Source of the DNA: Nitrospinae bacterium RIFCSPLOWO2_12_FULL_45_22
Lineage (GTDB): Bacteria; 2-12-FULL-45-22
Direction: 5' to 3'
DNA: 33,248 nt
NCBI GenBank assembly: GCA_001803565.1
Contig: MHDQ01000302.1
Coordinates: 1-33,248 of the forward strand
Below are positions 1 to 24,542 of this stretch, in pieces. The notes beneath the pieces are model-generated. The model was not told the origin of the DNA. It did not search any database and worked only from the letters and a program-made list of their open reading frames with translations. Within the stretch, counting starts at the first letter, position 1, and the number at the start of each line of letters is the position of its first letter. A program made the position numbers and the translations under genes.

Positions 1-769
1 AGAAGGAAGATATATTTATTGCGTAATAGGGACGGATCAAGAGAGAAACTTTGGCCTTATGGGTATTGGCGGTCGGGGGGACGAGGTATATACCCTTTGT
101 TATCAAGGTCAGGCCGCGGTCATCAGTAATTCTCCTGTCACGCAATATCCTATCTCCCGGGAGAATATCCTGGCCCATCAAAGGGTCATGGAAAGGGTAA
201 TGGGGGATTATACTGTTTTGCCGGTGAGGTTTGGGACCATTGCAGAGAGTAAAGACGGGGTTTCTGCCGAGCAGAGGATCAAAGAGAAGGTTTTACGGGG
301 AAGATATAAGGAATTAGAGGGTCTACTCCAGACAATGGAGAACAAGGTAGAGCTTGGCGTAAAGGCCTTATGGGCTGATATGAGTTTGATCTTTGGGGAA
401 ATCATTCAGGAAAACAAGGAGATTAGAATACTAAAGAAAAAGATAGAAGCCAGACCCCCTCTCCAGACCCGTGATGAGAGAATTGCCCTGGGAGAGATGG
501 TGCAATCCAGATTGGAGGCAAAAAGGGAAAAGGAGGGGAAGGCTCTCTTAACTGCCCTAAAAAAGATAGCAGCCGATTACCGGACCAATAAGCCCCTTGG
601 CGACCGGATGATAATGAATGCTGCCTTCTTAGTAAATACTGATGCCATGGAAGATTTCGATAATCAAGTAAATAAATTAGCGGCTGAAGGTCAGGAGAGA
701 ATAAAGCTTAAGTATGTCGGCCCGGTACCGCCCTGCAATTTTGTGGATTTAACCGTTACCTGGGAATAA
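1..769 (+). CDS. gvpF: Gas vesicle protein GvpF/GvpL family, 5'-partial (continues upstream of the window)
   Basis: ORF 59..769 carries GvpF/L hallmarks (EVYTLCY, TVLPVRFGTI). The in-frame translation of nt 2..58 (GRYIYCVIGTDQERNFGL) aligns with the RYIYCIVESNDRLSLGRIGIGGNEVYTI core of the paralogue at 5568..6773. The true start therefore lies off-window. Confidence 0.85.
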   Translation, partial: EGRYIYCVIGTDQERNFGLMGIGGRGDEVYTLCYQGQAAVISNSPVTQYPISRENILAHQRVMERVMGDYTVLPVRFGTIAESKDGVSAEQRIKEKVLRGRYKELEGLLQTMENKVELGVKALWADMSLIFGEIIQENKEIRILKKKIEARPPLQTRDERIALGEMVQSRLEAKREKEGKALLTALKKIAADYRTNKPLGDRMIMNAAFLVNTDAMEDFDNQVNKLAAEGQERIKLKYVGPVPPCNFVDLTVTWE

Positions 770-781
770 AAGGAGGAGAAG

Positions 782-1054
782 ATGGCAAACCAAGAAGATA
801 TGGGCTTAGGTTTCCTGGACATATTATTCCCCTTTTTCATTCCTCTAAAGGGGCTGATGTGGATTGGGGGAAAGGTTAAGGAAATGGTAGAAAGGGAAAT
901 GACTGATGAACCCAAAATTCACGAAGAGCTGCTAGAACTCCAGATGCGCCTTGAGATGGATGAGATAACGGAAGAGGAATATGAAAAAAGCGAGGGCAAA
1001 CTAATGGAGAAATTAGAAGAGATCAGGAGATATAAAGAAAAGGAAGGGGGGTGA
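782..1054 (+). CDS. gvpG: Gas vesicle protein GvpG
   Basis: 90 aa; LGFLDILFPFFIPLKGLMWI plus an acidic ELLELQMRLEMDEITEEEYE motif typical of GvpG; RBS aaaggagg 6 nt upstream. Confidence 0.85.
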   Translation: MANQEDMGLGFLDILFPFFIPLKGLMWIGGKVKEMVEREMTDEPKIHEELLELQMRLEMDEITEEEYEKSEGKLMEKLEEIRRYKEKEGG

Positions 1055-1058
1055 GAAG

Positions 1059-1280
1059 ATGGAGGCAAAGATTAGACCAGCATCAAGAACAGGACCCTTT
1101 AAATGCCTCAGATGCGGGAGTATAACCGCGAGTGGGTTAAAGTATTGCACCCAATGCGGCGAGAAGCTTACTATAGAATGTCCTGGCTGTAACACTACCT
1201 GGCGTTTTTATTCCTATTATCCTTACTGCCCAGAGTGTGGGACAAAGACCAGCCAGAGATACGCTGAGGCTGCTCGCTAG
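1059..1280 (+). CDS. Small zinc-ribbon protein (two CxxC pairs)
   Basis: 73 aa; CLRCG..CTQCG and CPGC..CPECG motifs; RBS aaggaaggggg upstream; coupled to gvpG. Confidence 0.7.
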   Translation: MEAKIRPASRTGPFKCLRCGSITASGLKYCTQCGEKLTIECPGCNTTWRFYSYYPYCPECGTKTSQRYAEAAR

Positions 1281-1406
1281 CACGAGAAATAAATAAAAAA
1301 TAAAAAAATGTGGACACGAATTTTATTCGTACTATCGAGGGAGCGGATAAATCCGTGCCCTCAATATTCTCATAAGCATAAGGGAAAATAACAAGGAGGA
1401 AAGAAG

Positions 1407-1673
1407 ATGGTTTTATCTTTAGATCAATTAATTCTACGGGCCCGGGAACAACTCAACAAAATCACCGGCTTAAAATTGTCCACTACCCTGGGAGTCACCA
1501 GGCATAATGGTACCTGGGTTGTCTCTGTGGAGTTGGTGGAAAAACATTCCATCCCTGATGGAATGGATATCCTGGCAACTTATGAGGTCAATATGGATGA
1601 AGAGGGTACCCTTGTCGATTTTAAGCGTAAAAGGCTCCGGAAACGGATAGATACCGAGGACGCAGAGGCATAG
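1407..1673 (+). CDS. gvpO: Gas vesicle protein GvpO
   Basis: 88 aa; GVTRHNGTWVVSVELVEKHSIPDGMDILATYEVNMDEEG matches the conserved GvpO core (…GxWxVxVEVVExxxxPDxxDILxxYEVxLDxxG…); strong RBS aaggagg. Confidence 0.85.
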   Translation: MVLSLDQLILRAREQLNKITGLKLSTTLGVTRHNGTWVVSVELVEKHSIPDGMDILATYEVNMDEEGTLVDFKRKRLRKRIDTEDAEA

Positions 1674-1756
1674 CTGAATGTTTGCGCTCATAGAGAATAG
1701 TTATCTGCGTGAATCTGCGTCCTAAATATAATTTAAGAGATAAAGGAACGAGACTA

Positions 1757-2680
1757 ATGCCACATCAAGGGCCAGGCTTTTTAGAAAACCAGGAGCTGCA
1801 ATTGATACTCTTCGGGGGGAAAGGCGGGAGTGGCAAGACCACCTTTGCGGCAGCCACTGCAATATATCGAGCCCAATCCAGCAAAAATAAAAAAATACTG
1901 GCCGTATCTACTGACCCGGCCCATTCCCTGGGGGATAGTTTCGGGGTCTTCATTGGGGACGAGCTTATACCCGTCAACGGTATAGAAAATCTGTGGGGGC
2001 TAGAGATAAATGCCCCGAAATTGCTGGAAGATTTCAAACAGAGACACGAGAAGGCAATCAAGAAACTGGCTGATCGTGGCACTTACTTTGACCAACAGGA
2101 TATAGCCGATTTCTTCTCCCTCTCATTACCCGGACTGGATGAAGTTATGGCCATCATAGAGATTGCCAATATCCTTAAGAATGGACAGTATGATCTGATT
2201 ATACTGGATACGGCTCCTACCGGGCATACCATTAATCTATTGGCCCTGCCCGAACAGATGGAAAAGTGGATCAAGGTCTTCGATCTGATGCAGGAAAAGC
2301 ACCGCTATATGGGGACGCATTTCACCGGTAGGAGGTATGTCAAAGATGATGCCGATGAGTTTATTGAGATGATGACCAGGGATATCGGCAGGGTGAAAAA
2401 CCTTCTTATGGATAAAAAAATAACGGAGTTTGTCCCGGTTACTATTCCAGAACCAATGAGTATATATGAGACCGAACGGCTTTTGGCGGTTTTGAAAGAT
2501 TATAAGATTTCTGTTAAAAGTATTATTGCTAACCGAGTTATTATTGATGAGGGGGTAGATTGTCCTTCCTGTCTGTCCAGAATAAGAGAAAAGGAGAAGT
2601 ATATAAGAGAGATGGAGAGAAGTTCGCTCTTTATAATCTCCTTAAAATGCCTTTATTCCCTGCCGAAGTTAGGGGGATAG
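1757..2680 (+). CDS. ArsA/GET3-family P-loop ATPase (single-domain), copy 1
   Basis: Deviant Walker A LFGGKGGSGKTT, switch region DTAPTGHT, C-terminal CPSC pair. ORF opens at GTG 1709, but the ATG at 1757 has RBS aaagga and is the likelier start. Confidence 0.85.
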   Translation: MPHQGPGFLENQELQLILFGGKGGSGKTTFAAATAIYRAQSSKNKKILAVSTDPAHSLGDSFGVFIGDELIPVNGIENLWGLEINAPKLLEDFKQRHEKAIKKLADRGTYFDQQDIADFFSLSLPGLDEVMAIIEIANILKNGQYDLIILDTAPTGHTINLLALPEQMEKWIKVFDLMQEKHRYMGTHFTGRRYVKDDADEFIEMMTRDIGRVKNLLMDKKITEFVPVTIPEPMSIYETERLLAVLKDYKISVKSIIANRVIIDEGVDCPSCLSRIREKEKYIREMERSSLFIISLKCLYSLPKLGG

Positions 2681-2730
2681 GGACCCTAAAGAAATTTATT
2701 GAGATATTGCAAGGAAATGGGGAAACATTC

Positions 2731-3756
2731 ATGAGCCCTCGGCTCACAAAGGATGATGAAAATATGTGGGATAGGAATGTACCGCATATCGATAGGCGGG
2801 GTTTTCTAACCCCGCAAAAACCATTTTCAGGAAAAGCCCCCTTAAATCGTGAATTCATCCTTTTTGGGGGCAAAGGCGGGGTAGGCAAGACTTCCCTGGC
2901 TGCCGCTACGGCCTTATGGCTAGCCAGAGAGGAGCGTAGCAAAAAAGTCCTGGCCTTCTCTACCGACCCGCCCATAGGGGATAAGATTACCCCTATAGAA
3001 GAGGTAGACAATCTTTATGCCCTGGAGATAAATGCCGCTAAATTACTGGAGGATTTTAAAGAGGAATACAGAGATGATATAAATGAAATGTTTGATAGGT
3101 TCTTGGCCGGAGGAATAGATGTCAAGTTTGATCGGGAGGTAATGACTGAGCTTATTTCCCTTGCGCCTCCTGGGTTAGATGAGATCATGGCCCTGGATAA
3201 GATTATAGATCTCAGAGATGCCCGGGAATTTGATCTGTTTATCCTGGACTCGGCTGCTACTGGACATCTACTCCGCTTCCTGGAACTGCCTGATCTGATC
3301 CGGGATTGGTTAAAAACCCTCTTCAAGATAATATTGAAATACAAGGGGATGGTACGCCTAACCAAGGTGGCTGAAAATTTGCTAAAACAGTCCAAAAATA
3401 CAAGAAAGATACAGGAAGCGCTTACAGACCCCCTCAGGAGTGAGTTTGTGGCAATAACCATCCCTGAGGCCATGGGTGTGTTGGAGATGGAAAGACTTCT
3501 ATCAGGCCTTAGTAGACTGAAGATACCCTGCCACCATATCATTATCAATATGGTCATTCCCCCAACGGATTGTAGTTTTTGCTCCTTCAAACGGAATGAA
3601 CAACAAAAGTATGTTAAGGCAATAAGAGATAACTTTGCCCGGTATCTGGTTTCCGAAATTCCCTTATTCCCCCATGAAATAAAGGAGAGAGAAAGATTGA
3701 ACGATCTTGCCGCGATGATGTATGATCCGGTCGAGGAGGTAATAAAAAGCGCCTGA
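2731..3756 (+). CDS. ArsA/GET3-family P-loop ATPase (single-domain), copy 2, with N-terminal 'GFLTPQK' module
   Basis: LFGGKGGVGKTS Walker A, DSAATGHLLRF switch, CSFCS pair. ORF opens at TTG 2560 overlapping copy 1; the ATG at 2731 with ggggaaa RBS is preferred, and the start is uncertain by about ±85 nt. Confidence 0.8.
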   Translation: MSPRLTKDDENMWDRNVPHIDRRGFLTPQKPFSGKAPLNREFILFGGKGGVGKTSLAAATALWLAREERSKKVLAFSTDPPIGDKITPIEEVDNLYALEINAAKLLEDFKEEYRDDINEMFDRFLAGGIDVKFDREVMTELISLAPPGLDEIMALDKIIDLRDAREFDLFILDSAATGHLLRFLELPDLIRDWLKTLFKIILKYKGMVRLTKVAENLLKQSKNTRKIQEALTDPLRSEFVAITIPEAMGVLEMERLLSGLSRLKIPCHHIIINMVIPPTDCSFCSFKRNEQQKYVKAIRDNFARYLVSEIPLFPHEIKERERLNDLAAMMYDPVEEVIKSA

Positions 3757-3811
3757 AGATAGAGATGTTTATCTATTCAGTGAAATGACTATTCCGATGA
3801 GGTAAGCAAAG

Positions 3812-4180
3812 ATGGTCCTAGAAGCCAGCAGAAACTCCAGCAGTACCTTAGTAGATGTAATAGATAGGATACTGGATAAGGGATTGGTGATCAATGCCGA
3901 TATAACTGTTTCCCTGGCTGGAGTAGAGTTGCTGGGTATCAAGATAAGGGCGGCTCTGGCTTCTTTCGAGACCGCAGCTAGATATGGCTTAGAGTTTCCC
4001 TCGGGGACTAATTATGAAACCTCAGCCTGGCAAGAAGCCCGGATAGGTAAAGAGAATTGTCCGCAGTGTGATAAGAGGACGCCGGTAGAGGAGCTTATTA
4101 GCACCGGCTGCCCCTGGTGTGGATGGATAAGTGCCAAGGCCAAGACCCTGGCCCAAAAAGCCGCCCCATCAATGATGTGA
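3812..4180 (+). CDS. GvpA/GvpJ/GvpM-fold gas vesicle protein fused to a C-terminal zinc ribbon
   Basis: N-terminus [39 protein letters not shown] is the GvpA/J/M signature; C-terminus has CPQC…CPWCGW. Confidence 0.8.
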
Positions 4181-4222
4181 GGCAACTTAATTACTGGTCT
4201 GAGAGGTAAAGAAGGTGTCGAA

Positions 4223-4555
4223 ATGGTTTTAGAATTCTTTTCCATCCCAGGAGCCCTTTTAAATGAAATTGATAAATATGCCTGTCAGCAGAGGGAAAGA
4301 GAGGCCAGAAATACCTACTGGATAAGGTGTCCCAATTGCGGAAAGCAGGTAGTAAAAAGGGAATTGATCAAGAAGGGGTGTTATGTATGCAACTGGCAGG
4401 GGACTGAAGATAAAATTAAACCGGCCAATCAAGAAACCAGGGATAGGCCAAATCCTTATAAGACAAATTGTCCCCGCTGCGGAGCCCGGGTGATAACCGA
4501 CCAACTACAAGAAAATGGGTGTTATCTCTGTGGATGGAAAGCTCCAAAGGATTAG
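4223..4555 (+). CDS. Double zinc-ribbon protein
   Basis: 110 aa; CPNCG…CYVCNW and CPRCG…CYLCGW, two ribbon units. Confidence 0.65.
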   Translation: MVLEFFSIPGALLNEIDKYACQQREREARNTYWIRCPNCGKQVVKRELIKKGCYVCNWQGTEDKIKPANQETRDRPNPYKTNCPRCGARVITDQLQENGCYLCGWKAPKD

Positions 4556-4558
4556 AAG

Positions 4559-4630
4559 GATAAATCCAAAGTTCAAAATCCAGATGCCAAAATATTTGAG
4601 CTTTGACATTTGGGCTTTTATTTTTAAGGA
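4559..4630 (+). promoter_or_regulatory. Conserved ~70-nt upstream element, copy A (precedes the Hsp20/gvpH-like gene)
   Basis: Near-identical to 5482..5553 (about 4 mismatches over ~72 nt); contains TTGACA at 4603..4608 and a T-rich tract. Confidence 0.7.
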
Positions 4631-4638
4631 TTAGAAGG

Positions 4639-5148
4639 ATGGATGAGATGGATAGAGAAGAAGGAGAAAAAGAGATAAAAAAATCTGAAGAAGACGAGGA
4701 TCGGGAGCCTGAAGGGATAGCCGGTAATGTGCTTAAGGGATTAGGTGATATTATTCCTGGGCTGGGTGGCTTGATCAAGGGCTTGAAGAAATCGGCGGCC
4801 TTCCAGGATAGGTTGAAAGTGATAGATGCGGAGGTTGAGGCCAGGTTAAAGGGGAAAGGATTGACTGAAAAGGAAGGAGAAATCTACCGATCAAGACCGA
4901 CGGTTGCAACCCCTAAGGAGGTTCCAGTAGAGCTCTTTGATGAAGGAGATTATTGGAGGGTAATCGCGGAATTGCCCGGGATAGAAGAAAAGGATATTAA
5001 GGTTGATCTGGAGGGTGCCAGGGTATTCATATCTGTCAATAGCTCCCAGCGTAAATATCACCGGGAAATCAACCTGGCTTGTACCCCTAAAGGCGATCTC
5101 AAAAAAGTTTATAAAAATGGGATACTAGAGATCACTATAGAAAAATAA
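4639..5148 (+). CDS. gvpH: Hsp20/alpha-crystallin-family protein (GvpH-like)
   Basis: ACD motifs WRVIAELPGIEEKDIKVDL … YKNGILEITIEK; start chosen at MDEMDREEG with RBS agaagg (ORF 4603 begins inside the repeat). Confidence 0.8.
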   Translation: MDEMDREEGEKEIKKSEEDEDREPEGIAGNVLKGLGDIIPGLGGLIKGLKKSAAFQDRLKVIDAEVEARLKGKGLTEKEGEIYRSRPTVATPKEVPVELFDEGDYWRVIAELPGIEEKDIKVDLEGARVFISVNSSQRKYHREINLACTPKGDLKKVYKNGILEITIEK

Positions 5149-5156
5149 CGAAGATT

Positions 5157-5480
5157 ATGCCTATTGATATTGATCAGGATAATTTGCGACATGGGGTCTT
5201 AGGTCTAGTTCTAGCCCTGGTGGAGATAATCAGAGATGCGTTGAGGCTCCAGGCCTTCAGACGCATGGAGGGAGGCAGCTTGACCGAGAAAGAGATTGAA
5301 CGATTAGGAGAGGCCTTGTTGGACCTGGATACCGCCATTGACCAGATCAAAGAAGAGCAAGGGATTACTGAGGCGGTTCAGGGTGTGAGAGATGGCCTGG
5401 ACAGCATTGTAGATGAAGTTATAGACCAGTTTGTTAACCCAGAACGGTGGGAAGAAAAAGCCAGAGAAAAGCGGGCTTGA
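5157..5480 (+). CDS. gvpK: Gas vesicle protein GvpK
   Basis: HGVLGLVLALVEIIRDALRLQAFRRMEGGSLTEKEIERLGEAL closely matches the conserved GvpK core. Confidence 0.9.
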   Translation: MPIDIDQDNLRHGVLGLVLALVEIIRDALRLQAFRRMEGGSLTEKEIERLGEALLDLDTAIDQIKEEQGITEAVQGVRDGLDSIVDEVIDQFVNPERWEEKAREKRA

Positions 5481-5481
5481 T

Positions 5482-5553
5482 GATAAATCCAAAGTTCAAA
5501 ATCCAAATGCCAAAATATTTGAGCTTTGACATGTGGGGTTTTTATTTTTAAAG
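5482..5553 (+). promoter_or_regulatory. Conserved ~70-nt upstream element, copy B (precedes the second gvpF/L)
   Basis: Near-identical to 4559..4630. Confidence 0.7.
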
Positions 5554-5567
5554 AAGGGATATTCAGA

Positions 5568-6773
5568 ATGGAGAGGGAAGTATCGCCGCTAAAGGTGTTA
5601 ATAGAGAGAATAATCAAAGATGAGATAGAGGATATGGCTGGGGAGATCAAGTCCCTGGTAAAGCAAACTGTCAAGAGCAGTTTTGTCTCAAAAATTAGAG
5701 AATCAGTGAGAAATGCTATATCAGAGACAATAGAAGAAATATTGCCAGAGACTGGGAAGCCCGGAATTATAACTTGCAGCAATGAAACTCAGTGGGATAA
5801 AGATTTTCCCCATCCATCCTATGAATTGGTACCCGGCGATAGGCAGGGTTTTCTAACCCCGCAAAAAGAATTTGTAACCGTTCACCCACACATTGCCCAC
5901 GATGTCATTCTGAGCGAAAGCGAAGAATCTCTTTCGCCGGAGACCCTTCGCCCCGCTCAGGGTGACAGTCCCAGTGAACGGTTACAAGAATTTAATACCG
6001 GGGATGGCAATAATAGCGGGAGATATATCTATTGTATTGTGGAGAGTAATGATCGGTTAAGCCTTGGCCGGATCGGTATAGGAGGTAATGAGGTGTATAC
6101 TATCCCCTATAAAGACCTGGCTGCCCTAGTCCACAATTGCTCCACCGAACCTTACGCTTCAGAAGATAGTGAAATAGTCAAGGGATGGGTAATGACGCAT
6201 CAAGAAGTCTTGGAAAGGACAGCTCAGAGATTTAGTACCGTGATACCTTTAGGCTTTGACACTATTATCAAAGCTGTAAACGGTCAAACCCCTGAGCAAA
6301 ACCTGATAGAGTGGCTAAAAGGAGATTATGAGAATCTCAAGGTAAAGGTAGCGAGGCTGAAAGGAAAGGAGGAGTATGGGGTACAGATCCTTTGGAACCC
6401 CAAAATTATCGGGCAAAAAATTGCCCAGATCACCCCTGAAATTAAGAAATTAGATGAGGATATAAAATCGAAGCCCAGAGGAATGGCCTATATGTATAAA
6501 CAGAAGCTAGAAGATGCCTTAAAAACTGAGCTAGAAAAGGCGGCTGATCGTTATTTTAAGGAATTTTATGAACAGATTAAGCCCTGGGCAGATGATCTGC
6601 GGGTAGAAAAGACCAAGAAGGCCGAGGAGGGCAAGCATATGCTCATGAATCTCTCCTGCCTGGTGGATAAGGAAAAATATAAAAAGTTGGGTGAAGAACT
6701 GGAGAGGATTAACAATATGGATGGTTTTTTTGTACGCTTTACCGGCCCCTGGCCACCCTATAGCTTTGTCTAG
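5568..6773 (+). CDS. gvpL: GvpF/GvpL-family protein with ~150-aa N-terminal extension carrying the 'GFLTPQK' module
   Basis: C-terminal ~250 aa paralogous to feature 1 (RYIYCIVE…EVYTIPY…). N-terminal extension has WDKDFPH…GDRQGFLTPQKEF. Start taken at MEREVSPLK with RBS aagaaggg. Confidence 0.8.
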   Translation: MEREVSPLKVLIERIIKDEIEDMAGEIKSLVKQTVKSSFVSKIRESVRNAISETIEEILPETGKPGIITCSNETQWDKDFPHPSYELVPGDRQGFLTPQKEFVTVHPHIAHDVILSESEESLSPETLRPAQGDSPSERLQEFNTGDGNNSGRYIYCIVESNDRLSLGRIGIGGNEVYTIPYKDLAALVHNCSTEPYASEDSEIVKGWVMTHQEVLERTAQRFSTVIPLGFDTIIKAVNGQTPEQNLIEWLKGDYENLKVKVARLKGKEEYGVQILWNPKIIGQKIAQITPEIKKLDEDIKSKPRGMAYMYKQKLEDALKTELEKAADRYFKEFYEQIKPWADDLRVEKTKKAEEGKHMLMNLSCLVDKEKYKKLGEELERINNMDGFFVRFTGPWPPYSFV

Positions 6774-6775
6774 AA

Positions 6776-7033
6776 ATGGAACCAACCAGAAATACCCATG
6801 CAACTTTAGTAGATTTATTGGACCGCATCCTGGATAAGGGGCTGGTGATACATGCCGATATTATCGTATCAGTGGCAGGAATACCCTTAATCGGGGTTAA
6901 TTTGCGGGCTGCCCTGGCAGGAATGGAAACGATGCTAAGATACGGTGTACTGCAGGCCTGGGATGAAGGCACCAGGGCCTGGGAACGGAGACAGAGAATG
7001 AAAGGAGAAATGGGAGTTTCTTCAGCAGTTTAG
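6776..7033 (+). CDS. GvpJ/GvpM-type small gas vesicle protein
   Basis: [47 protein letters not shown]; start 3 nt after the gvpL stop (coupled). Confidence 0.85.
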   Translation: MEPTRNTHATLVDLLDRILDKGLVIHADIIVSVAGIPLIGVNLRAALAGMETMLRYGVLQAWDEGTRAWERRQRMKGEMGVSSAV

Positions 7034-7063
7034 CCAAATTAGGCTCATAAAACCATAAAGAGA

Positions 7064-7130
7064 GGTTGTAGTGGCAGAGCTTGCTCTGCTTGGGTGCTTA
7101 TCGGGATGTCGAGCAAGCTCGACCACTACA
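7064..7130. repeat. REP-like palindromic element: two inverted copies of a 23-nt unit (TTGTAGTGG + GAGCwwGCTC hairpin) flanking a 21-nt spacer
   Basis: 7064..7086 ttgtagtggcagagcttgctctg and 7108..7130 tcgagcaagctcgaccactacaa (reverse-complement orientation). The differences between arms are compensatory within each internal hairpin. Confidence 0.65.
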
Positions 7131-7139
7131 AAAGGAAAC

Positions 7140-8984
7140 ATGGGTAGAGTAGTAGGGATTGACTTAGGGACTACTAATTCAGTAGTAGCCATTATGGAGA
7201 GGGGAAAGCCTAAGGTTATACCTAATGCTGACGGTAACCCCTTGACTCCATCAGTGGTAGCCTTTACCCCGGATTGGAGACCTCTGGTAGGTCAGTTAGC
7301 TAAGAAACAGGCAACGGTAAATCCCGAAAAAGCCCTCTTTTCTATCAATAAAAGGATGGAGAGAAGTTCCTATGGGGAGAGGAATAATCCTGCTAGTTTT
7401 AACCAGATTATTACTTCTATCAAGAGACGGATGGGCTCTAACTATATAGTAAAGATTGATAACAGGGAATATACCCCCCAGGAGATCTCCAGCATGATCT
7501 TGCAAAAAATAAAGAGGGATGCAGAAGACTATCTGGGCGAAAAAATAGGGAAGGCCGTGATTACTGTGCCTGCTTATTTTAATGATAGCCAGCGCAAGGC
7601 TACTAAAGATGCTGCTACTATTGCTGATCTGGAAGTCATCAGGATTATTAATGAACCAACCGCAGCAGCCCTGGCTTATGGCTTAGACAAAGAAGATATT
7701 CATACCATTTTGGTTTGGGACCTTGGGGGTGGTACCTTTGATGTCTCTATTTTGGAATTAGGAGATGGCTTCTTTGAGGTTAAGGCAGTAAATGGCGATA
7801 CCCACCTGGGTGGGGATGACTATGACCAGCGAATTGTTAATTATTTAGCCGATGTTTGTCAAAAAGAGCAAGATATTGACCTCCGGCAAGATAGGATTAC
7901 CCTTCAGATACTGAAAGAAGTAGCCGAAAAGGCCAAGATTGAGCTCTCCTATGCCCTAACTACCAATATAAGTTTATCTTTGATTTACCAAGATGGTCTT
8001 AAGAACCCGGATATTATCCTGAGGAGGGAAGAGTTTAATGAGCTAACCGAGGATTTAAGAGAGCGAATGATACGACCAACGCAACAGGCCCTGGTTGATG
8101 CCAGGCTTTCTCCTGAGGATATTGATAGGGTGATCCTGGTAGGTGGGGCCACCAGGATGCCAGCGATACAGGAATTGGCTAAGACGCTCCTGGGCAAAGA
8201 GCCCTATAACCATATTGATCCAGACAAGATTGTAGCGCTGGGGGCCGCTATTCAGGCCGGTATTTTAACGGGGGAAGTTAGGAAAGTGACCTTGATAGAT
8301 GTTAATCCTTTATCTTTAGGCATCGAGACTATGGGCGGAGTATTTACCAGGATCATTGAAAGAAATACACCTATTCCTACCTCTCAAAGCCGGGTCTTTA
8401 CTACTGCTCGGGACAATCAAACAGAAGTAGATATCCATGTCTTCCAAGGAGAGCGGGCGATGGTCAGACATAATATGCCCCTGGACAGGTTCCGCCTTAC
8501 CGGTATCGAACCTCAACCCCGAGGCGAAGCCCGCATCGAGGTAATTTTTGATATTGATGTCAATAGTATTGTCCAGGTGTCAGCTATAGACCTTCAGACG
8601 GATAACCAGCAAAAGATAGAGATTAACTCGTTTGGGAGCCTGCTGGAAGAAGGGATAGACCAGATGGTTGAAGAAGCCAGGATATATGCTGAGCAAGATA
8701 GGAGAGAGCGAGAAAAAATAGAGGCAAGTATCCGGGCTAATAGTATGATTTGTGCGGCTGAGCACATGATTAAAGAGGTGGAGGAAAAAATTAGTAACTC
8801 CCTCCGGGAAGGGGTAATCGAGATTGAACAAGCTATACTCCTGGTTAAAGAGGCCCTGGCCAGTAGTAATTACCAGGAAGTAAAATCCCGAACACAAGAA
8901 TTAGAAAGGCTTATTCAGGCCAGGGAGAGAGAAAGGAGGAATAAAAAAAAGGAGATAAAGGAAGAGGAGGCGGTACTAACTTGA
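7140..8984 (+). CDS. dnaK: Hsp70 chaperone DnaK (divergent, stand-alone; no grpE/dnaJ adjacent)
   Basis: [45 protein letters not shown], substrate-binding domain and helical lid present. ORF opens at GTG 7071 but the conserved N-terminus begins at ATG 7140. Confidence 0.9.
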
Positions 8985-9004
8985 TATACAGAGCGACATA
9001 ATTA

Positions 9005-9100
9005 TTTGCGCATACCAACATTGCCTGTCATTCCGGGCTTGACCCGGAATCCAGCATCTTTTCTGGATTCCGGCTTTCGCCGGAATGACGACTTATGCGT
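9005..9100. repeat. Structured palindromic element (tandem hairpins attccggg-N5-cccggaat / attccgg-N6-ccggaat with outer 10-bp inverted repeat gtcattccgg/ccggaatgac and imperfect 15-bp flanking inverted repeats)
   Basis: Read directly from 9027..9089; mutually exclusive alternative pairings are possible. Confidence 0.55.
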
Positions 9101-9232
9101 ATTTAATTTGGACGCTGTGTATAGTATAGGAATTTTCATTTTAATAATGCGGTTTTTCACTCCTCGCAACGACAGTATGTATTGAAATGTTAATTTGGCA
9201 ACGATGTACTAGAGACCCAGGAGGATAAGGCA

Positions 9233-9541
9233 ATGGATTTTCTAGGAAGGAGCAAATGGGAGACGTTAGAGGAAAAAATAGTAGATATTGTTGATGGGAA
9301 GAGACGGGTGCTGGTCATTGCTGAGATGCCCGGTGTATCCGAGGAGGAGATCAATATAGATATTGCCGGTGATGTCCTTTTGCTTCTGGCTTCCCATAAG
9401 GATAAGAAGTATTCCAATGAGATATTCCTACCAGCCAGAGTAAAAAGAGAAACTATGAAATATATCTATAAAAACGGCCTCTTAGAGATCACTATAGACA
9501 AAGAACTAGCTCGGAAACCAGGTCAATTAAATTATATTTAG
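9233..9541 (+). CDS. Hsp20-family small protein, paralogue of the GvpH-like protein
   Basis: VLVIAEMPGVSEEEINIDI … YKNGLLEITIDK, C-terminus nearly identical to 4639..5148; RBS aggagg. Confidence 0.75.
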   Translation: MDFLGRSKWETLEEKIVDIVDGKRRVLVIAEMPGVSEEEINIDIAGDVLLLLASHKDKKYSNEIFLPARVKRETMKYIYKNGLLEITIDKELARKPGQLNYI

Positions 9542-9587
9542 GACGCAGATTTCCGCAGACATTTTAGTGAGGAGTAAGCAGTGAGCC

Positions 9588-9620
9588 GTGAGCAGTAACT
9601 GCTAATTCCTTACTGCTCAC
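9588..9620. terminator. Hairpin between convergent genes (11-bp stem gtgagcagtaa/ttactgctcac, 11-nt loop), followed by TTTACAAAAT
   Basis: Inverted repeat read directly; lies between the hsp20 stop (9541) and the stop of the minus-strand redoxin gene (9755). Confidence 0.5.
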
Positions 9621-9754
9621 TTTACAAAATCTGTGTTCATCTGTGTCCAAAATGAAAATCCCTATACTATCAACCTGGACTACTTTCTCCCCCCGCTAGA
9701 TAACAAGCGCCTGGCAGGGTGGGGAAAAAATATCCCGGGGGCGATGCAAGGCTT

Positions 9755-11134
9755 TTATTCCGGGATCCTGGCCAGGATATCTTTATATGCTTTAAGGGAG
9801 TTGATTATTTTGTGGGTCTCATTCAGCCCTTCCAGGAGCAGTTTAGACGACTGGGTAGCACCGGTTATCCCATCTATATCTTCTTTGAGTGTTAATGGCA
9901 GTTTTTGGTTAGCTCGCTGAGTAACCCTCTGGAGGAAGTCCGGGGCGCTTATAAGCTCTCCATATAGATTTATATTTTCGATCAAGATAATGTTTTTTAT
10001 CTCTCCAGTGAGATCAAAGGTATAGACAAAGTGGACATTGGTGCAAACATCACAGAGGACATCTTTGAATACCTCCCGGGCGAGCACCTTCGCCCCAGTC
10101 TTATCCTTACCCAGATATACTGTATCCCCGTCCAGGTTGATCCTTTCAAACTTCTTAACCCCAGGGGCAGCCATCTCGAAATATCTCATTAATATATCCT
10201 CCGGGAGCTCTTCCCGAAAATAACTCTTTACCTTAACCAATACTGAAGCTACATTAGCCAGCGATACCTGATCGCTAATATATCTTATCTTACCTCTTTT
10301 GTTTATAATAAATACCCGGGGCAAATCCTTTACCCCATATAGGCGAGCCACTTCTTTGTTTTGGTCTACCAGGATAGGAAAATTCACATAATATTTTTTC
10401 CTGAATTCATTGACTTCGGCTGGCCTATCCCCCACGGCCACTCGAATCAAATCCACATCCTCCCGCCGGTAGGTACTATAAAGGGATTTCATTATCTCAA
10501 TAATCTGGCGGAGAGTCTCATCATGGATAGAAAGAAAGGTAAGGAGGAGGGTCTTTTTATTCAGTAGGTCTTTGAAGTTAAAAGTTTCTCCCTGACTGGT
10601 CTTGAGAGAGAAATCCGGTGGCCTATTCCATAAGTCTGCCCCAACAATCTCTTTTTCTACAATTATTCTGTCCAGAATAGATTTTAGCTCTTCATAGGTA
10701 GGCAACTTACCCCGGTATCTAATAGTCCCACTCCGGTCTATAATATCCACCAGGGGCACGGTAGCAACAAAATATTTTTTATACACTTCCTTTTTCGGGT
10801 CCGGTAGCATAAAAAACTTGGCCTTAAAGGCCTCTCTAAACTCTGAGGTCTCCTTCTCATCATTACCTATGGCCACCCCAATTACCTGCAAGTCTTTGTA
10901 TTTATGATAGATTTGGTTAACTTCATTAATCAGAGGGACATCTTCCCGACAGGTATGACAATACACATTAAAATGGACCAGCATTATGGCCTTCCCCAGG
11001 TACTGAGAAAGGATAAAGGGCTTCCCGTTAAGGTCTCTTAGGGTAAAATCAGGGGCCTCTGCACCTAACATATCAGCCATTGCTAGCCGCGGAAGAAATA
11101 GGAATATAAGTAATGCCAGCCAACCCTTTTTCAT
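9755..11134 (-). CDS. Exported protein: tandem thioredoxin-fold (TlpA/AhpC-TSA-like) domains + C-terminal FMN-binding (FMN_bind) domain
   Basis: Signal peptide MKKGWLALLIFLFLPRLAMA (start taken at M33 of the ORF). Domain 1 has CHTC. Domain 2 is paralogous but lacks CxxC. C-terminus has the DGITGATQSS FMN_bind signature. Confidence 0.75.
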   Translation of the reverse strand: MKKGWLALLIFLFLPRLAMADMLGAEAPDFTLRDLNGKPFILSQYLGKAIMLVHFNVYCHTCREDVPLINEVNQIYHKYKDLQVIGVAIGNDEKETSEFREAFKAKFFMLPDPKKEVYKKYFVATVPLVDIIDRSGTIRYRGKLPTYEELKSILDRIIVEKEIVGADLWNRPPDFSLKTSQGETFNFKDLLNKKTLLLTFLSIHDETLRQIIEIMKSLYSTYRREDVDLIRVAVGDRPAEVNEFRKKYYVNFPILVDQNKEVARLYGVKDLPRVFIINKRGKIRYISDQVSLANVASVLVKVKSYFREELPEDILMRYFEMAAPGVKKFERINLDGDTVYLGKDKTGAKVLAREVFKDVLCDVCTNVHFVYTFDLTGEIKNIILIENINLYGELISAPDFLQRVTQRANQKLPLTLKEDIDGITGATQSSKLLLEGLNETHKIINSLKAYKDILARIPE

Positions 11135-11223
11135 AAGCGCTCTCCTTGTTTTAATTTTCCGTGTCCTCTGGAATCTCTGTGGCTTTAGGTATCGTTTTAT
11201 AATCTTAACTGAATAGAAATAAA

Positions 11224-11252
11224 TTGACAAGCAGATTAATCTCTGCTAGATT
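11224..11252 (+). promoter_or_regulatory. Putative sigma70-type promoter (TTGACA-17-TAGATT) with an 18-nt palindrome AGCAGAttaatcTCTGCT filling the spacer
   Basis: Read from sequence, ~60 nt upstream of the radical SAM gene's ATG. Confidence 0.45.
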
Positions 11253-11311: not shown

Positions 11312-12778
11312 ATGAAACTCCTATTCTTGCAGCCCCAATTAGGGGCTTGGTCTACCTGGGGGAAACATCGTGCCCCAAATATCAACCATGCCCAGTTGGC
11401 CGCTTATTTACGGGAAAAGAACCCGGAGATAGAGCTGGCTGTGCTGGACTGCCGGGCCCTGGAATTAGCTGAGGAAGAGATGCTAAATCGGGTGGGGCAA
11501 ATAAAGCCCGATGTCGTGTATCTGGGTGATATCCTCCATACTACCGGCGGGGCGGCCATTATTTACCGCTACAACCAGGCCGCCAAAAAGGTCAAGGAAA
11601 ATTATCCTGCTACCACGATAATTGTTGGTGGGCTTTATTATTCTGCTTTACCAGAGCGGATTCTAACCGAAAACTCAAGTATAGATTATGTTATTTTAGG
11701 AGAAGGGGAGATAACCCTGTCAGAATTGATGAAAGAGCTAACACGAACCAAGCCAGCTTTGGAAAAAGTTAAGGGGTTGGCTTACGGGCATAACCACCAA
11801 ATCTCATTAAACGACCCCCGGCCCCTGATAGAGGATTTGGATAAGTTGCCTTGTCCGGCCTATGATCTGTTTCCTATGGATCAATATGTGGGCTATAGCT
11901 ATTTGAAACCTTATGTGGAGACCTGGAACAGCCGGGGCTGTCCGGCGGGTTGTGCCTTCTGCTACGAATGGTCCCAATTCGATACCCGGAGCAGGAACGA
12001 TTTGAGGAATTACCGGGCCCGCTCGGGAAAACTGGTAGCCCAGGAGATGGAGTTATTAGCAAAAAAATATGGCCTGAAGAACATTGTTATGATGGATGAT
12101 GCCTTCAATGTCCAACGAGATCGGGTCATAGAGTTCTGTCAAGAGATGATTGAGAAGAGATTAGGGACGGACTGGCTAATGCTGGGTCGAGCGCCCAATT
12201 ATGTCAGGGATCAGGACCTCTTTCCCCTGATGAAAGAAGCCGGGGCGGCCTGTTGCTTGGTAGGGCTCGAAGTGGCAACGGATGATGAGCTCAAGGCCCT
12301 GAAGAAGGGGATCACTACCCAACAAGTAGCCGAGACTATCGCTAAGCTCCGCAAGGCCGGTATTGCCAGTGTCCTTACCTGGATGATCGGTTTCTGGGAA
12401 GATAGCGAGGAGGTAATAAAAGAACGGTATCGTTTTGTTGATCAGATTGATCCTGATCTTATGGCCTTACAAGTCCTGAACCCTATGCCCGGCTCCCCTT
12501 TATGGGATGAAGCCTGGAAGAAAGATTTGATAGAGGTAGATGACCTCTCGCAATGGGATTTTCACCGGCCGGTAATGCCCACCAAGTATCTGAGCCGGGA
12601 GAGGTTAGCAGAGCTAGGCGCCTGGACCCTACAGGATTTTTATCAGAAAGAGGGGCGTATTGAAAGGATCTTTAAGAACCCGGACTTTGCCCCTATGGCA
12701 AAAGTCATTTTCCAATCCTATTTGGATAATGCCGCCAATTTCGAAAAGGCCATAAAAGGTGAAGCAGTCTTTGTCTAA
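11312..12778 (+). CDS. B12-binding-domain radical SAM protein (class B)
   Basis: N-terminal cobalamin-binding-like domain; CPAGCAFC (CxxxCxxC) radical SAM motif; RBS aaggaggg. Confidence 0.8.
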   Translation: MKLLFLQPQLGAWSTWGKHRAPNINHAQLAAYLREKNPEIELAVLDCRALELAEEEMLNRVGQIKPDVVYLGDILHTTGGAAIIYRYNQAAKKVKENYPATTIIVGGLYYSALPERILTENSSIDYVILGEGEITLSELMKELTRTKPALEKVKGLAYGHNHQISLNDPRPLIEDLDKLPCPAYDLFPMDQYVGYSYLKPYVETWNSRGCPAGCAFCYEWSQFDTRSRNDLRNYRARSGKLVAQEMELLAKKYGLKNIVMMDDAFNVQRDRVIEFCQEMIEKRLGTDWLMLGRAPNYVRDQDLFPLMKEAGAACCLVGLEVATDDELKALKKGITTQQVAETIAKLRKAGIASVLTWMIGFWEDSEEVIKERYRFVDQIDPDLMALQVLNPMPGSPLWDEAWKKDLIEVDDLSQWDFHRPVMPTKYLSRERLAELGAWTLQDFYQKEGRIERIFKNPDFAPMAKVIFQSYLDNAANFEKAIKGEAVFV

Positions 12779-23030: not shown

Positions 23031-24542
23031 CTAGGTCCTAGGGGTAAAAATATTTATCAGAGGTAACAGGTCTTCCCCCAGAAGCACTCTTATATGGATA
23101 TCCTTACGATTAGAGAAGGACTCTTGAAGCCCTTGCTCTCCAGGAATATCGTGGTTCATAACAACGGCCTGCTGGCCATAACCTTCTTGATAGAGGATCA
23201 TAGTATTTTTATGGCCAAAATGCTCGGCATTCGTCAACCTCGCTACCCGATACCCCCTGACTTTTAGGTATTCACTTACCCTGGAGGCCATTCTAGCAAG
23301 TCCATTTCCGTTAGATACTTCTACCCGGAATCCCTCCCCCTCTCCTGGTTGGTTAAGAGAAGCCTGCAAAATCGGTTTCTCTTCCTCTTTTTTTAATGGT
23401 TGGATATCTTCCTGAAAGAGATTGGCCAGGGGCAGTAAGTCTCTCCCCAGAAGAACTCTTATATGGATATCCTTACGGTTGGAGGAAGAGATTAAGAGTT
23501 CTTGCTCTCCCGGTATTTCATGGTTCAGAGCAATAGCTTGCTGGCCATAACCTTCTTGATAGAAGATCATAGTATTTTTATGGCCAAAATGCTCGGCATT
23601 CGTCAACCTCGCTACCCGATACCCCCTGACTTTTAGGTATTCACTTATCCTGGAGGCCATTCTAGCAAGTCCATTTCCGTTTGATACTTCCACCCGGAAT
23701 CCCTTCCCCTCTCCTGGTTGGTTAAGAGAAGCCTGCAAAATCGGTTTCTCTTCCTCCCCTGGGGTAAGAAATTCCAGGCGAGAGATATTAGGGGACTCTT
23801 CTATTAAGATGAAATCCGGTTCTTTTAGTTGAATTTCATTGATCGAGAACTCTGTAAGCATCCAGGATTCATCCTCGGCTTTTAGTAAGCCAGGGGCTAC
23901 AGAGATTTTATTTGAGAACGATCTTTCCGGACTAATGTTCCCGTCTGGTTGGGTAAAAACTTTACCCGTAGAAATAGGAGTTTTTGATTCACCTGATAGG
24001 GCATTCGGGCCTGTCCCCAGCTTGCTATAGGTAAAATCTAAATTATTACGGGTTCTTCTATTTTCTTTATCCAGGGATAAGACTTTTTTAAAGTATTTTA
24101 TTGCCTCCTCAAATCTCCCTTGTAAATAATAGGAATAACCCAGGTTATTCAGCACTGATACCCTCTTGGGATCAATATTTAAGACCAGGCGGTATTCCTC
24201 GGCAGATTCTTCGTACATCCCTTTAAGGTCATAGGTGACACCAAGACCATTGTGGGCCTCCAAGAAATCTGGCTTTAAGGCAATAGCCTGGCAAAATTGC
24301 TCCATAGCTCTATCGTATTGCTTCTGGCTGAGATAGTATTTCGCTAGCCTATAAGCAGCTAAGGGATCGTCCGGGCGAGTCCGGACTGACTCAATAAATT
24401 TTTTTACTTCTTTGTTGGTGATCCCATACTCCTGCTTTCCAAAGATATTTATTGGCAGCCAGCTAGTAAAAGTACGGGTAGCACTGCACCCCGCTATGAG
24501 TATGATTACTGTCATCCCCAAGAGATAGATTATCTTGCGCAT
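23031..24542 (-). CDS. TPR-repeat lipoprotein with two tandem LytR_C-like C-terminal modules
   Basis: Lipobox IAGC; three or more TPR units; two ~124-aa modules (GFRVEVSNGNGLARMAS…VRGYRV…IHIRVLLG.DLLPL) that are >90% identical at the nucleotide level. Confidence 0.75.
   Translation of the reverse strand: MRKIIYLLGMTVIILIAGCSATRTFTSWLPINIFGKQEYGITNKEVKKFIESVRTRPDDPLAAYRLAKYYLSQKQYDRAMEQFCQAIALKPDFLEAHNGLGVTYDLKGMYEESAEEYRLVLNIDPKRVSVLNNLGYSYYLQGRFEEAIKYFKKVLSLDKENRRTRNNLDFTYSKLGTGPNALSGESKTPISTGKVFTQPDGNISPERSFSNKISVAPGLLKAEDESWMLTEFSINEIQLKEPDFILIEESPNISRLEFLTPGEEEKPILQASLNQPGEGKGFRVEVSNGNGLARMASRISEYLKVRGYRVARLTNAEHFGHKNTMIFYQEGYGQQAIALNHEIPGEQELLISSSNRKDIHIRVLLGRDLLPLANLFQEDIQPLKKEEEKPILQASLNQPGEGEGFRVEVSNGNGLARMASRVSEYLKVRGYRVARLTNAEHFGHKNTMILYQEGYGQQAVVMNHDIPGEQGLQESFSNRKDIHIRVLLGEDLLPLINIFTPRT

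Follow-up and report, generated by a model that had tools for sequence, protein, structure and literature searches.

Gas-vesicle genes on both sides of a contig end

In this study, we analyzed a block of gas-vesicle (gvp) genes at positions 1 to 9541 of a 33,248-nt stretch of DNA (the window), which exact-sequence look-ups identified as an entire contig of the metagenome-assembled genome (MAG) "Nitrospinae bacterium RIFCSPLOWO2_12_FULL_45_22," so that its position 1 is a contig end. Open reading frame (ORF) listing, translation, and Pfam searches revealed tightly spaced, codirectional genes on the plus strand, in the order gvpF, gvpG, zinc ribbon, gvpO, Get3/ArsA-type ATPase, gvpJ with a zinc ribbon, tandem zinc ribbon, Hsp20, gvpK, gvpL, gvpM, Hsp70, and Hsp20. 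The Pfam matches in the window (GvpF, G, O, J, K, L, and M; ArsA; zinc ribbons; Hsp70; and two Hsp20s) lie where an earlier reading of the bare sequence (the sequence-only reading) had placed its Gvp homologues, ArsA, three zinc-ribbon ORFs, DnaK, and two Hsp20s. The gene after the last Hsp20 is a minus-strand AhpC/thioredoxin fusion (9755 to 11230), followed by housekeeping genes, and the cluster thus ends near position 9560. Together with near-identical contigs that continue past the edge, these data make it probable—a judgment that we apply jointly to the operon layout and to the chaperone relay proposed below—that 1 to 9541 forms the distal half of an operon for gas vesicles, ~18 kb long and with ~24 genes.

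The shell and assembly genes were assigned by Pfam, with gvpF, gvpL, gvpG, gvpK, and gvpJ/M all above the gathering scores inside the window. The contig end cuts gvpF (1 to 769, ORF 2 to 769; PF06386, 212 bits) at codon 4, and its first three codons are missing; the full-length gene (258 aa) is present at 9212 to 9988 of the near-identical contig L001. It is followed by gvpG (782 to 1054; PF05120, 78.8 bits), whose product has an N-terminal hydrophobic helix, and further downstream by gvpO (1407 to 1673; PF05800, 65.4 bits), gvpK (5157 to 5480; PF05121, 70.8 bits), and a second gene of the GvpF/L family (5568 to 6773, ORF 5526 to 6773; PF06386, 221.5 bits). The latter, with a likely start at 5568 and an N-terminal extension of ~150 aa, has GvpL as its best NCBIfam match, at 181.9 bits and thus under the 200-bit cutoff, and is called gvpL here. 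Both GvpA-family genes of the window (PF00741), at 3812 to 4180 (62.6 bits) and 6776 to 7033 (65.2 bits), score under the GvpA cutoff of NCBIfam and are nearest GvpJ and GvpM, respectively, not GvpA; the GvpJ-like protein ends in a C-terminal zinc ribbon.

Within 1 to 9541, Pfam and NCBIfam searches found no GvpN, GvpC, or true GvpA. The sequence-only reading had reported the lack of GvpN and GvpC, and this stands for the interval itself; the missing gvpN, however, is an edge artifact, because the window starts at a contig end and three independent assemblies continue into gvpA and gvpN. A look-up with the window's GvpG retrieved six near-identical contigs, among them L001, which overlaps window positions 1 to 2615 at 99.6% identity. 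Upstream, L001 carries, all on the same strand, an Hsp20, a 216-aa repeat protein, gvpA, a 142-aa repeat protein, gvpN, an AbrB/MazE-like protein, an unassigned 111-aa protein, a CDC48-type AAA ATPase, a GvpF-DnaJ (J-domain) fusion, and an unassigned 233-aa protein, and then reaches gvpF. Its gvpA (NF006874, 130 bits against a cutoff of 100) lies 6.7 kb upstream of the window, and L001 3333 to 4250 is gvpN according to an equivalog model (TIGR02640, 341 bits against a cutoff of 267). Two Joint Genome Institute contigs, found with a DNA pattern from the upstream region and both 99.6% identical to L001, corroborate this arrangement: L095 spans gvpA through gvpN to the 5′ part of the CDC48 gene, and L096 holds the 3′ part of gvpN, CDC48, the GvpF-DnaJ gene, the 233-aa gene, and the start of the window's gvpF. 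The proximal part is further confirmed by L002, from the same Rifle project, and by L003 to L005. A bona fide gvpN and a canonical gvpA sit ~5 to 7 kb upstream in the same population, much as the sequence-only reading had surmised for gvpA and possibly gvpN, and its idea that ArsA fills the ATPase slot in place of GvpN does not hold. The upstream GvpA is 86 to 91% identical to the GvpA of many other gvp clusters (tblastn), and the locus contains an ordinary gas-vesicle shell gene set, not a GvpN-less system.

GvpC had no Pfam match at an E value of ≤0.01 in any protein of the window or of L001. The two proteins flanking gvpA (L001 1546 to 2196 and 2708 to 3136) are charged, internally duplicated, and without annotation; their self-alignments score 129 against a shuffle mean of 29 (z score, ~17) and 59 against 27 (z score, ~6). 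Homologues of the first of these are found between gvpA and gvpN in another Nitrospinota locus (L059), with matches also in gvp loci of Bacteroidota, Chlorobiaceae, and Pirellulales, and both repeat proteins could be GvpC-like outer-layer proteins. Another upstream protein, of ~230 aa and without a family match, is conserved at L001 8283 to 8984, L091 16471 to 17160, and L092 14705 to 15385. It directly follows CDC48 in L091 and L092, has tblastn matches in L014 to L016, L041, L059, L061, L062, and L064, and may be a CDC48 cofactor.

Besides the GvpJ-like protein, two products of the block are zinc-ribbon proteins. A double zinc-ribbon protein of 73 aa (1059 to 1280; PF12773 DZR, 35.8 bits) had no tblastn match in 83 other loci and is lineage specific at its position. 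The other, a tandem zinc-ribbon protein of 110 aa (4223 to 4555; PF24441 DUF7560, 32.9 bits), belongs to a small family, with 50 clusters at an E value of ≤1e-3 in an exhaustive search among 1.84 billion representatives (six in a word-index search), and is also encoded in the gvp loci L008, L010, L013, L016, and L029. A module of the form CPxC...GCxxCxW occurs once on the GvpJ C terminus and twice in the free tandem protein, and in relatives, a zinc-ribbon match falls at, or close to, the end of the long GvpA-family (GvpM-like) gene. The module is probably a docking tag within the chaperone machinery. We also considered these ribbons as DnaJ-type zinc fingers and rejected this assignment, given that on sequence inspection they do not fit the CxxCxGxG pattern.

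Chaperone-type genes and spacer repeats

The sequence-only reading had described a tandem pair of ArsA/GET3-type ATPases, but the two ORFs in question (1709 to 2680 and 2560 to 3756, both matching PF02374) are a single two-domain gene (1757 to 3756) that is split in this contig, since the near-identical contigs L002 and L003 encode one fused protein of 666 to 676 aa with two ArsA domains. The ORFs overlap by 121 nt because one G has been lost at around position 2613, where the window reads GG and four near-identical contigs read GGG. Moreover, 30 nt between two GCCCAT direct repeats are absent from the window at around position 2970 and present in two contigs; they encode AHALSDSFGC, part of the invariant switch I motif DPAHxLSDSF of the second half. 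The frameshift and the 30-nt deletion are either assembly errors in a strain-variable linker or the marks of a real pseudogene.

The intact gene has a P-loop, switch I (DPAH), switch II (DTAPTGH), and a Get3-type CxxC zinc motif in both halves, of which the window copy has lost the second DPAH motif. It scores 491 bits with TIGR00345 (cutoff, 135) and 226 bits with the ArsA equivalog model TIGR04291 (cutoff, 650), and the best matches of the intact protein in a PDB sequence search were the Chlamydomonas two-domain ARSA1 and archaeal and fungal Get3 (229 to 164 bits), with Escherichia coli ArsA at 116 bits. Its cysteines are found only at positions 269, 272, 415, 602, 616, and 619, none of them near either switch II motif; the arsenite-binding cysteine triad is absent, and the sole invariant cysteines among 13 to 20 homologues are one CxxC pair per half, which is the Get3 zinc motif. 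A structure model of a 92%-identical homologue (predicted local distance difference test, 80; predicted template-modeling score, 0.78) shows an ArsA/Get3 pseudodimer with a template-modeling score of ~0.78 to closed ArsA, and in the fold search, the identity per domain was 30 to 35% to Get3 and 20 to 23% to ArsA. The genes annotated in the window and L001 include no arsB, acr3, arsR, or arsD, and no Get3 membrane receptor genes were seen in the cluster. These comparisons place the intact protein nearer Get3 than the arsenite pump.

The Hsp70 gene (7140 to 8984 with a likely ATG start at 7140, ORF 7071 to 8984; PF00012, 699.7 bits) encodes a DnaK paralogue that passes the NCBIfam DnaK model PRK00290 (783 bits against a cutoff of 648), fails the equivalog model TIGR02350 (762 bits against 823), and falls under the HscA model cutoff (573 bits against 709). 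Its C terminus is noncanonical and lacks the acidic tail of canonical DnaK. The same holds for 115 of its 120 best relatives, which have no canonical tail and share a distinct lid sequence. The non-self relatives are 55 to 64% identical to it, and in all six of the neighborhoods that were fetched, the gene stands among gvp genes, two-domain ArsA, Hsp20, and zinc-finger proteins, often together with CDC48; a control DnaK with the canonical tail (P0109) is located in an hrcA-grpE-dnaK-dnaJ arrangement. We therefore regard the window's Hsp70 as a probable member of a dedicated, gvp-linked clade and not as the housekeeping DnaK. Its nucleotide-binding domain contains an insertion of ~27 aa (window 7329 to 7412, residues ~64 to 91 counted from ATG 7140) that resembles a local duplication and is common to a subset of gvp-linked Hsp70s.

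Further genes of this kind are found on both sides of the contig end. The GvpF-DnaJ fusion (L001 7206 to 8273) combines PF06386 with PF00226 (60 bits) and has an intact HPD motif at residue 288, and the upstream CDC48-family protein is a double AAA ATPase (TIGR01243, 977 bits against a cutoff of 803). In the window, one small heat-shock protein of the Hsp20 family is encoded at 4639 to 5148 (ORF 4603 to 5148, likely ATG start at 4639; PF00011, 23.3 bits) and reaches 74.9 bits with the NCBIfam archaeal Hsp20 model, under its cutoff. The second, the last gene of the cluster (9233 to 9541; PF00011, 32.4 bits), has a weak match to the Pfam domain ArsA_HSP20, which some cluster Hsp20s match. With regard to GvpH (PF05455), the Hsp20s of the window match PF00011 only, and the upstream Hsp20 reaches 18.7 bits, under the 22-bit cutoff.

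The spacers between these genes contain several types of repeats; an Rfam scan of the whole window matched no family. A REP-like interspersed repeat lies in the Hsp70-Hsp20 spacer (9010 to 9095; translation, ...VIPGLTRNP...FLDSGFRRNDD), and a 59-aa ORF at 9006 to 9185 was rejected as a gene, being a translation of this repeat without a Pfam match. Window positions 8985 to 9124 are 100% identical to L003 2 to 141, and 8998 to 9124 to L004 1 to 127, both upstream of the GvpF-DnaJ gene; since the element is absent from this place in L001, it is strain variable. Spacers of the window (1704 to 1736, 9527 to 9559 on the minus strand, and 9630 to 9655) and of L001 (7037 on the minus strand, 7153 to 7190, 9052 on the minus strand, and 9167 to 9190) share a tandem TCTG(C/T)G motif (ATCTGYG-N4-ATCTGYGTCC...). 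Its copies are often inverted pairs bracketing 70 to 120 nt and resemble either a repeated operator or a miniature inverted-repeat transposable element (MITE) bounded by terminal inverted repeats; one inverted pair, 24 nt long and exact, encloses everything from ArsA through the last Hsp20. A 33-nt inverted repeat around this segment was considered as the ends of a cassette and rejected, as it consists of copies of the TCTG(C/T)G motif, which brackets other spacers too. A 67-nt direct repeat with 93% identity (4559 to 4625 and 5482 to 5548), whose copies immediately precede the start codons of Hsp20 and gvpL, folds no better than its shuffles; it might serve as an internal promoter or as a regulatory site, or it may be an interspersed repeat. 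Lastly, a 37-nt GC hairpin repeat (92% identical) lies in coding DNA, at 2790 to 2826 in the ArsA interdomain linker and at 5837 to 5873 in the N-terminal extension of GvpL. Both copies encode GFLTPQK, and a third motif, LLTPQK, occurs in the 216-aa protein beside gvpA (L001 ~1894); no other fetched locus has either form, and in the strain variant L002, the ArsA linker is different and has no such motif.

Recurrence across genomes and relation to known systems

In a survey of one genome per GTDB species, scanned with an ArsA alignment, we kept 80 loci and searched them by tblastn with the cluster proteins, counting a locus as gvp linked if at least two different gvp families were found within 10 kb. 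By this definition, 50 of the 80 sampled ArsA loci are gvp linked and span more than 12 phyla, with members in Dehalococcoidia, Anaerolineales, Patescibacteria, Actinomycetota, Acidobacteriota, Verrucomicrobiota, Planctomycetota, Gemmatimonadota, Bacteroidota, Chlorobiaceae, Cyanobacteria, Myxococcota, Spirochaetales, Nitrospinota, and Methanomicrobiaceae. Within these 50 loci, GvpN was found in 27, Hsp20 in 26, CDC48 in 25, a J domain in 15, and DnaK and the tandem zinc-ribbon protein in four each. Nearly all J domains are in gvp-linked loci (15 of 16), and in the loci with listed gene order, they lie at the end of a GvpF-like match. Clusters collinear with L001 and the window were found in Dehalococcoidia (L010 and L029) and in "Ca. 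Hakubella" (L013). This recurrence supports the view that ArsA, Hsp70, Hsp20, and the zinc-ribbon proteins genuinely belong, as conserved components, to a type of gvp cluster and did not come together by chance. The sequence-only reading had expected its proposal of a distinct variant to fail if a gvpA-gvpN module stood upstream and the extra genes were unlinked from gvp genes in relatives; the module is there, but in relatives, the linkage is kept.

To our knowledge, gas vesicles are not expected in some of the lineages in which these genes occur, namely, Doudnabacteria and other Patescibacteria, Altiarchaeota, and Dehalococcoides. A MAG of "Ca. Doudnabacteria" (Patescibacteria; L011) holds a near-complete gvp cluster with ArsA, CDC48, and GvpF-J, and a second patescibacterial MAG (L064) holds a shorter one. 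In the MAG labeled Dehalococcoides mccartyi (L010), gvp genes occur together with ArsA and GvpF-J, and the GvpA encoded there shares 91% identity with that upstream of the window. On the short altiarchaeotal contig L014, only GvpN and ArsA were seen.

The presence of ArsA homologues in gvp clusters is not new. In Castillo and Saier (2010; PMC2963123), such homologues are described together with hsp20 in clusters of Polaribacter irgensii, Pelodictyon luteolum, Geobacter uraniireducens, Anabaena/Nostoc, and an acidobacterium, and the protein is proposed to energize a step of gas-vesicle biogenesis alongside GvpN. In those clusters, as in the present locus, a two-domain ArsA homologue (~640 aa in that paper) stands amid gvpN, L, F, G, J, K, M, and hsp20, without ars genes and without arsenite-binding cysteines. 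It differs in that neither Hsp70 nor DnaK occurs in that paper (PMC2963123); furthermore, the passages considered here contain no mention of CDC48, J-domain fusions, or zinc-ribbon proteins, and the paper treats the protein as ArsA-like, not Get3-like. Relative to the cluster type set out there, the locus adds a dedicated Hsp70, the GvpF-J fusion, a zinc-ribbon-tagged GvpJ, and the tandem zinc-ribbon protein.

With the model clusters (Halobacterium p-vac gvpACNO/DEFGHIJKLM, Anabaena, Bacillus megaterium, and Serratia 39006), the locus shares the core genes gvpA, F, G, J, K, L, M, and N (and O), the order gvpA, another gene, gvpN, and an Hsp20-like protein that may be compared to haloarchaeal GvpH. 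Unlike them, it has no Pfam match to GvpC, with two repetitive charged proteins flanking gvpA instead, and a 2022 review of those clusters (PMC9501494) mentions neither ArsA nor Hsp proteins. The view that its gene content departs from the haloarchaeal, cyanobacterial, Bacillus, and Serratia clusters is borne out by that review.

Outside the gas-vesicle field, two comparisons suggest themselves. The ATPase is like Get3/TRC40 and the two-domain plastid ARSA1 in its best PDB sequence matches, its P-loop and switch motifs, its CxxC (in both halves here), and its predicted pseudodimer; unlike Get3/TRC40, it comes without receptor genes and without a tail-anchored client in the cluster, and its presumed destination is a protein shell, not a lipid membrane. 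HscA and HscB form a dedicated Hsp70/J-protein pair in Fe-S cluster assembly. As in that pair, a specialized Hsp70 paralogue is encoded here with its pathway and a J domain is tied to the client-binding protein, but here the J domain is fused to GvpF, and the Hsp70 scores under the HscA models. A full-text literature search, with incomplete coverage, found no report of a dedicated Hsp70/DnaK, J domains, CDC48, Get3, or a zinc-ribbon-tagged GvpJ in gvp clusters, and Castillo and Saier (2010) was the one paper it returned that connects ArsA with gvp. As far as we found, then, the core is canonical and ArsA is known, whereas the layer of Hsp70, GvpF-J, CDC48, and zinc ribbons is undescribed but widespread.

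Two observations concern the rest of the window. A B12-binding radical SAM gene (11312 to 12778) adjoins the cluster and has a 30%-identical relative at L093 7896 to 9284, inside the gvp/Hsp70 region of "Ca. Scalindua rubra"; we considered it as part of the system and rejected it, this being a single weak counterpart among the gvp loci and probably a coincidence. Further away, two 300-nt direct repeats with 87% identity (23046 to 23714) lie inside a TPR/LytR_C gene (23031 to 24542) and correspond to its two LytR_C domains.

A possible chaperone relay and its alternatives

Gene identities, gene order, and the recurrence of the layout in other phyla are direct observations; what the added genes do has to be read from them. 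The most likely explanation, we infer, is a cluster-encoded chaperone relay that would keep the hydrophobic shell proteins soluble and clear failed or collapsed shells. The shell-family proteins GvpA, J, and M, being hydrophobic and aggregation prone, would first be bound by GvpF and GvpL, of which the former has been described as the primary, chaperone-like binder of GvpA and the latter as a binder of GvpJ and GvpM (PMC11445434 and PMC9501494). The J domain on the GvpF paralogue would recruit and switch on an Hsp70 at the place where GvpF holds the shell subunit, and in this lineage, the recruited Hsp70 would be the dedicated, cluster-encoded paralogue. The two-domain Get3-like ATPase may shield hydrophobic segments in an ATP-gated manner, as Get3 does for tail-anchored proteins; the Hsp20s could serve as holdases; the CDC48-type unfoldase might extract misassembled subunits or recycle collapsed shells; and GvpN would retain its usual role in vesicle enlargement. 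The strongest mechanistic clue is the J domain with an intact HPD motif on a GvpF paralogue. It is conceivable, if somewhat short of probable, that shell construction and recycling depend on such a dedicated relay in a large class of gas-vesicle clusters, the relay being composed of GvpF-J, Hsp70, a Get3-like escort to the protein shell, and CDC48 for proofreading or dismantling. This class would span Dehalococcoidia, Actinomycetota, Planctomycetota, Bacteroidota, Chlorobi, Nitrospinota, Patescibacteria, and some archaea, with a private Hsp70 only in the subtype seen here.

Several points weigh against this explanation. The roles given to Hsp70, Get3/ArsA, CDC48, and the zinc ribbons come only from family knowledge and gene neighborhood, and the cluster has no nucleotide-exchange factor (GrpE). 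In this contig, the Get3/ArsA gene is frameshifted and lacks a catalytic motif, a sign either of an assembly error or of a gene that is dispensable or dead here. The analogy to Get3 is loose because no cluster protein has a Get3-style C-terminal transmembrane tail: we found a C-terminal hydrophobic or transmembrane tail in none of them, the most hydrophobic stretches being internal or N-terminal. Promoter and terminator scans gave the same counts as shuffled sequence, and the operon structure is therefore deduced from spacing and orientation only. Finally, gas vesicles have never been seen in the organism, which is uncultured and known from a MAG.

Two further explanations have, in our view, very little probability. 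One, raised by the sequence-only reading, is a GvpN-less, ArsA-driven gas-vesicle system or a Gvp-derived nanocompartment without gas. It accords with the lack of gvpN, gvpC, and gvpA inside 1 to 9541 and with the 23 of 50 ArsA-linked gvp loci that have no GvpN within 10 kb, many of which belong to Acidobacteriota or Myxococcota. For this locus, however, it is refuted by gvpA and gvpN 5 to 7 kb upstream in three independent assemblies at 99.6% identity, the window start being merely a contig end, and the close identity of the upstream GvpA to that of other clusters, noted above, makes a nanocompartment unlikely as well. The other holds that DnaK, the Hsp20s, and ArsA are ordinary heat-shock and arsenic-resistance genes that came to lie beside gvp by chance or through a link to stress. 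All three are indeed common stress genes, the Hsp70 passes PRK00290, and the REP- and MITE-like spacer repeats mark the region as prone to rearrangement. It is hard to maintain, though, in the face of the same gene combination recurring in distant phyla, of an ATPase without arsenite-binding cysteines and without ars genes annotated in the window or L001, and of an Hsp70 clade that lacks the canonical tail, stands outside a grpE-dnaK-dnaJ operon, and scores under the TIGR02350 cutoff.

A role in turnover instead of assembly is less remote than these two, though still unlikely. Hsp70, CDC48, and the Hsp20s would then mainly remove shell sheets that have collapsed or are in excess and dampen GvpA proteotoxicity, and Get3/ArsA would be separate, perhaps with a regulatory or positioning role like that of other ParA/MinD-fold ATPases. 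CDC48-type ATPases are unfoldases, which fits such a role, as does the contrast in this contig between an apparently broken ArsA gene and an otherwise intact cluster. Published findings point the same way: in Dolichospermum, a native producer, gas-vesicle collapse induces clpB, dnaK, and a dnaJ-like gene (bioRxiv 10.64898/2026.05.31.729101), and gas-vesicle expression is proteotoxic in E. coli (PMC12848028). Both findings also accord with the relay. On the other hand, it is GvpF, which binds newly made GvpA early, that carries the J domain, and this argues for the assembly side; of the extra genes, moreover, ArsA has the widest conservation. We accordingly prefer the chaperone relay, acting in assembly as well as in clearance.

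For the study of uncultured lineages, the locus illustrates that apparently missing core genes at MAG contig edges should be checked in sibling assemblies before a new system type is claimed. Beyond this, gas vesicles are in use as acoustic reporter genes, although their expression is proteotoxic, and the delivery of the hydrophobic shell protein and its insertion are still being worked out. Clusters that bring their own Hsp70, GvpF-J, Get3-like ATPase, CDC48, and Hsp20s hint at the host functions that may be limiting and offer concrete genes to coexpress, and the GvpF-J fusion turns the idea that GvpF chaperones GvpA into a testable hand-over to Hsp70. If the relay exists as proposed, no earlier Get3-family and Hsp70/J system in prokaryotes would have been dedicated to a nonmembrane organelle, and the relay would provide a ready-made toolkit for nontoxic heterologous expression of gas vesicles.

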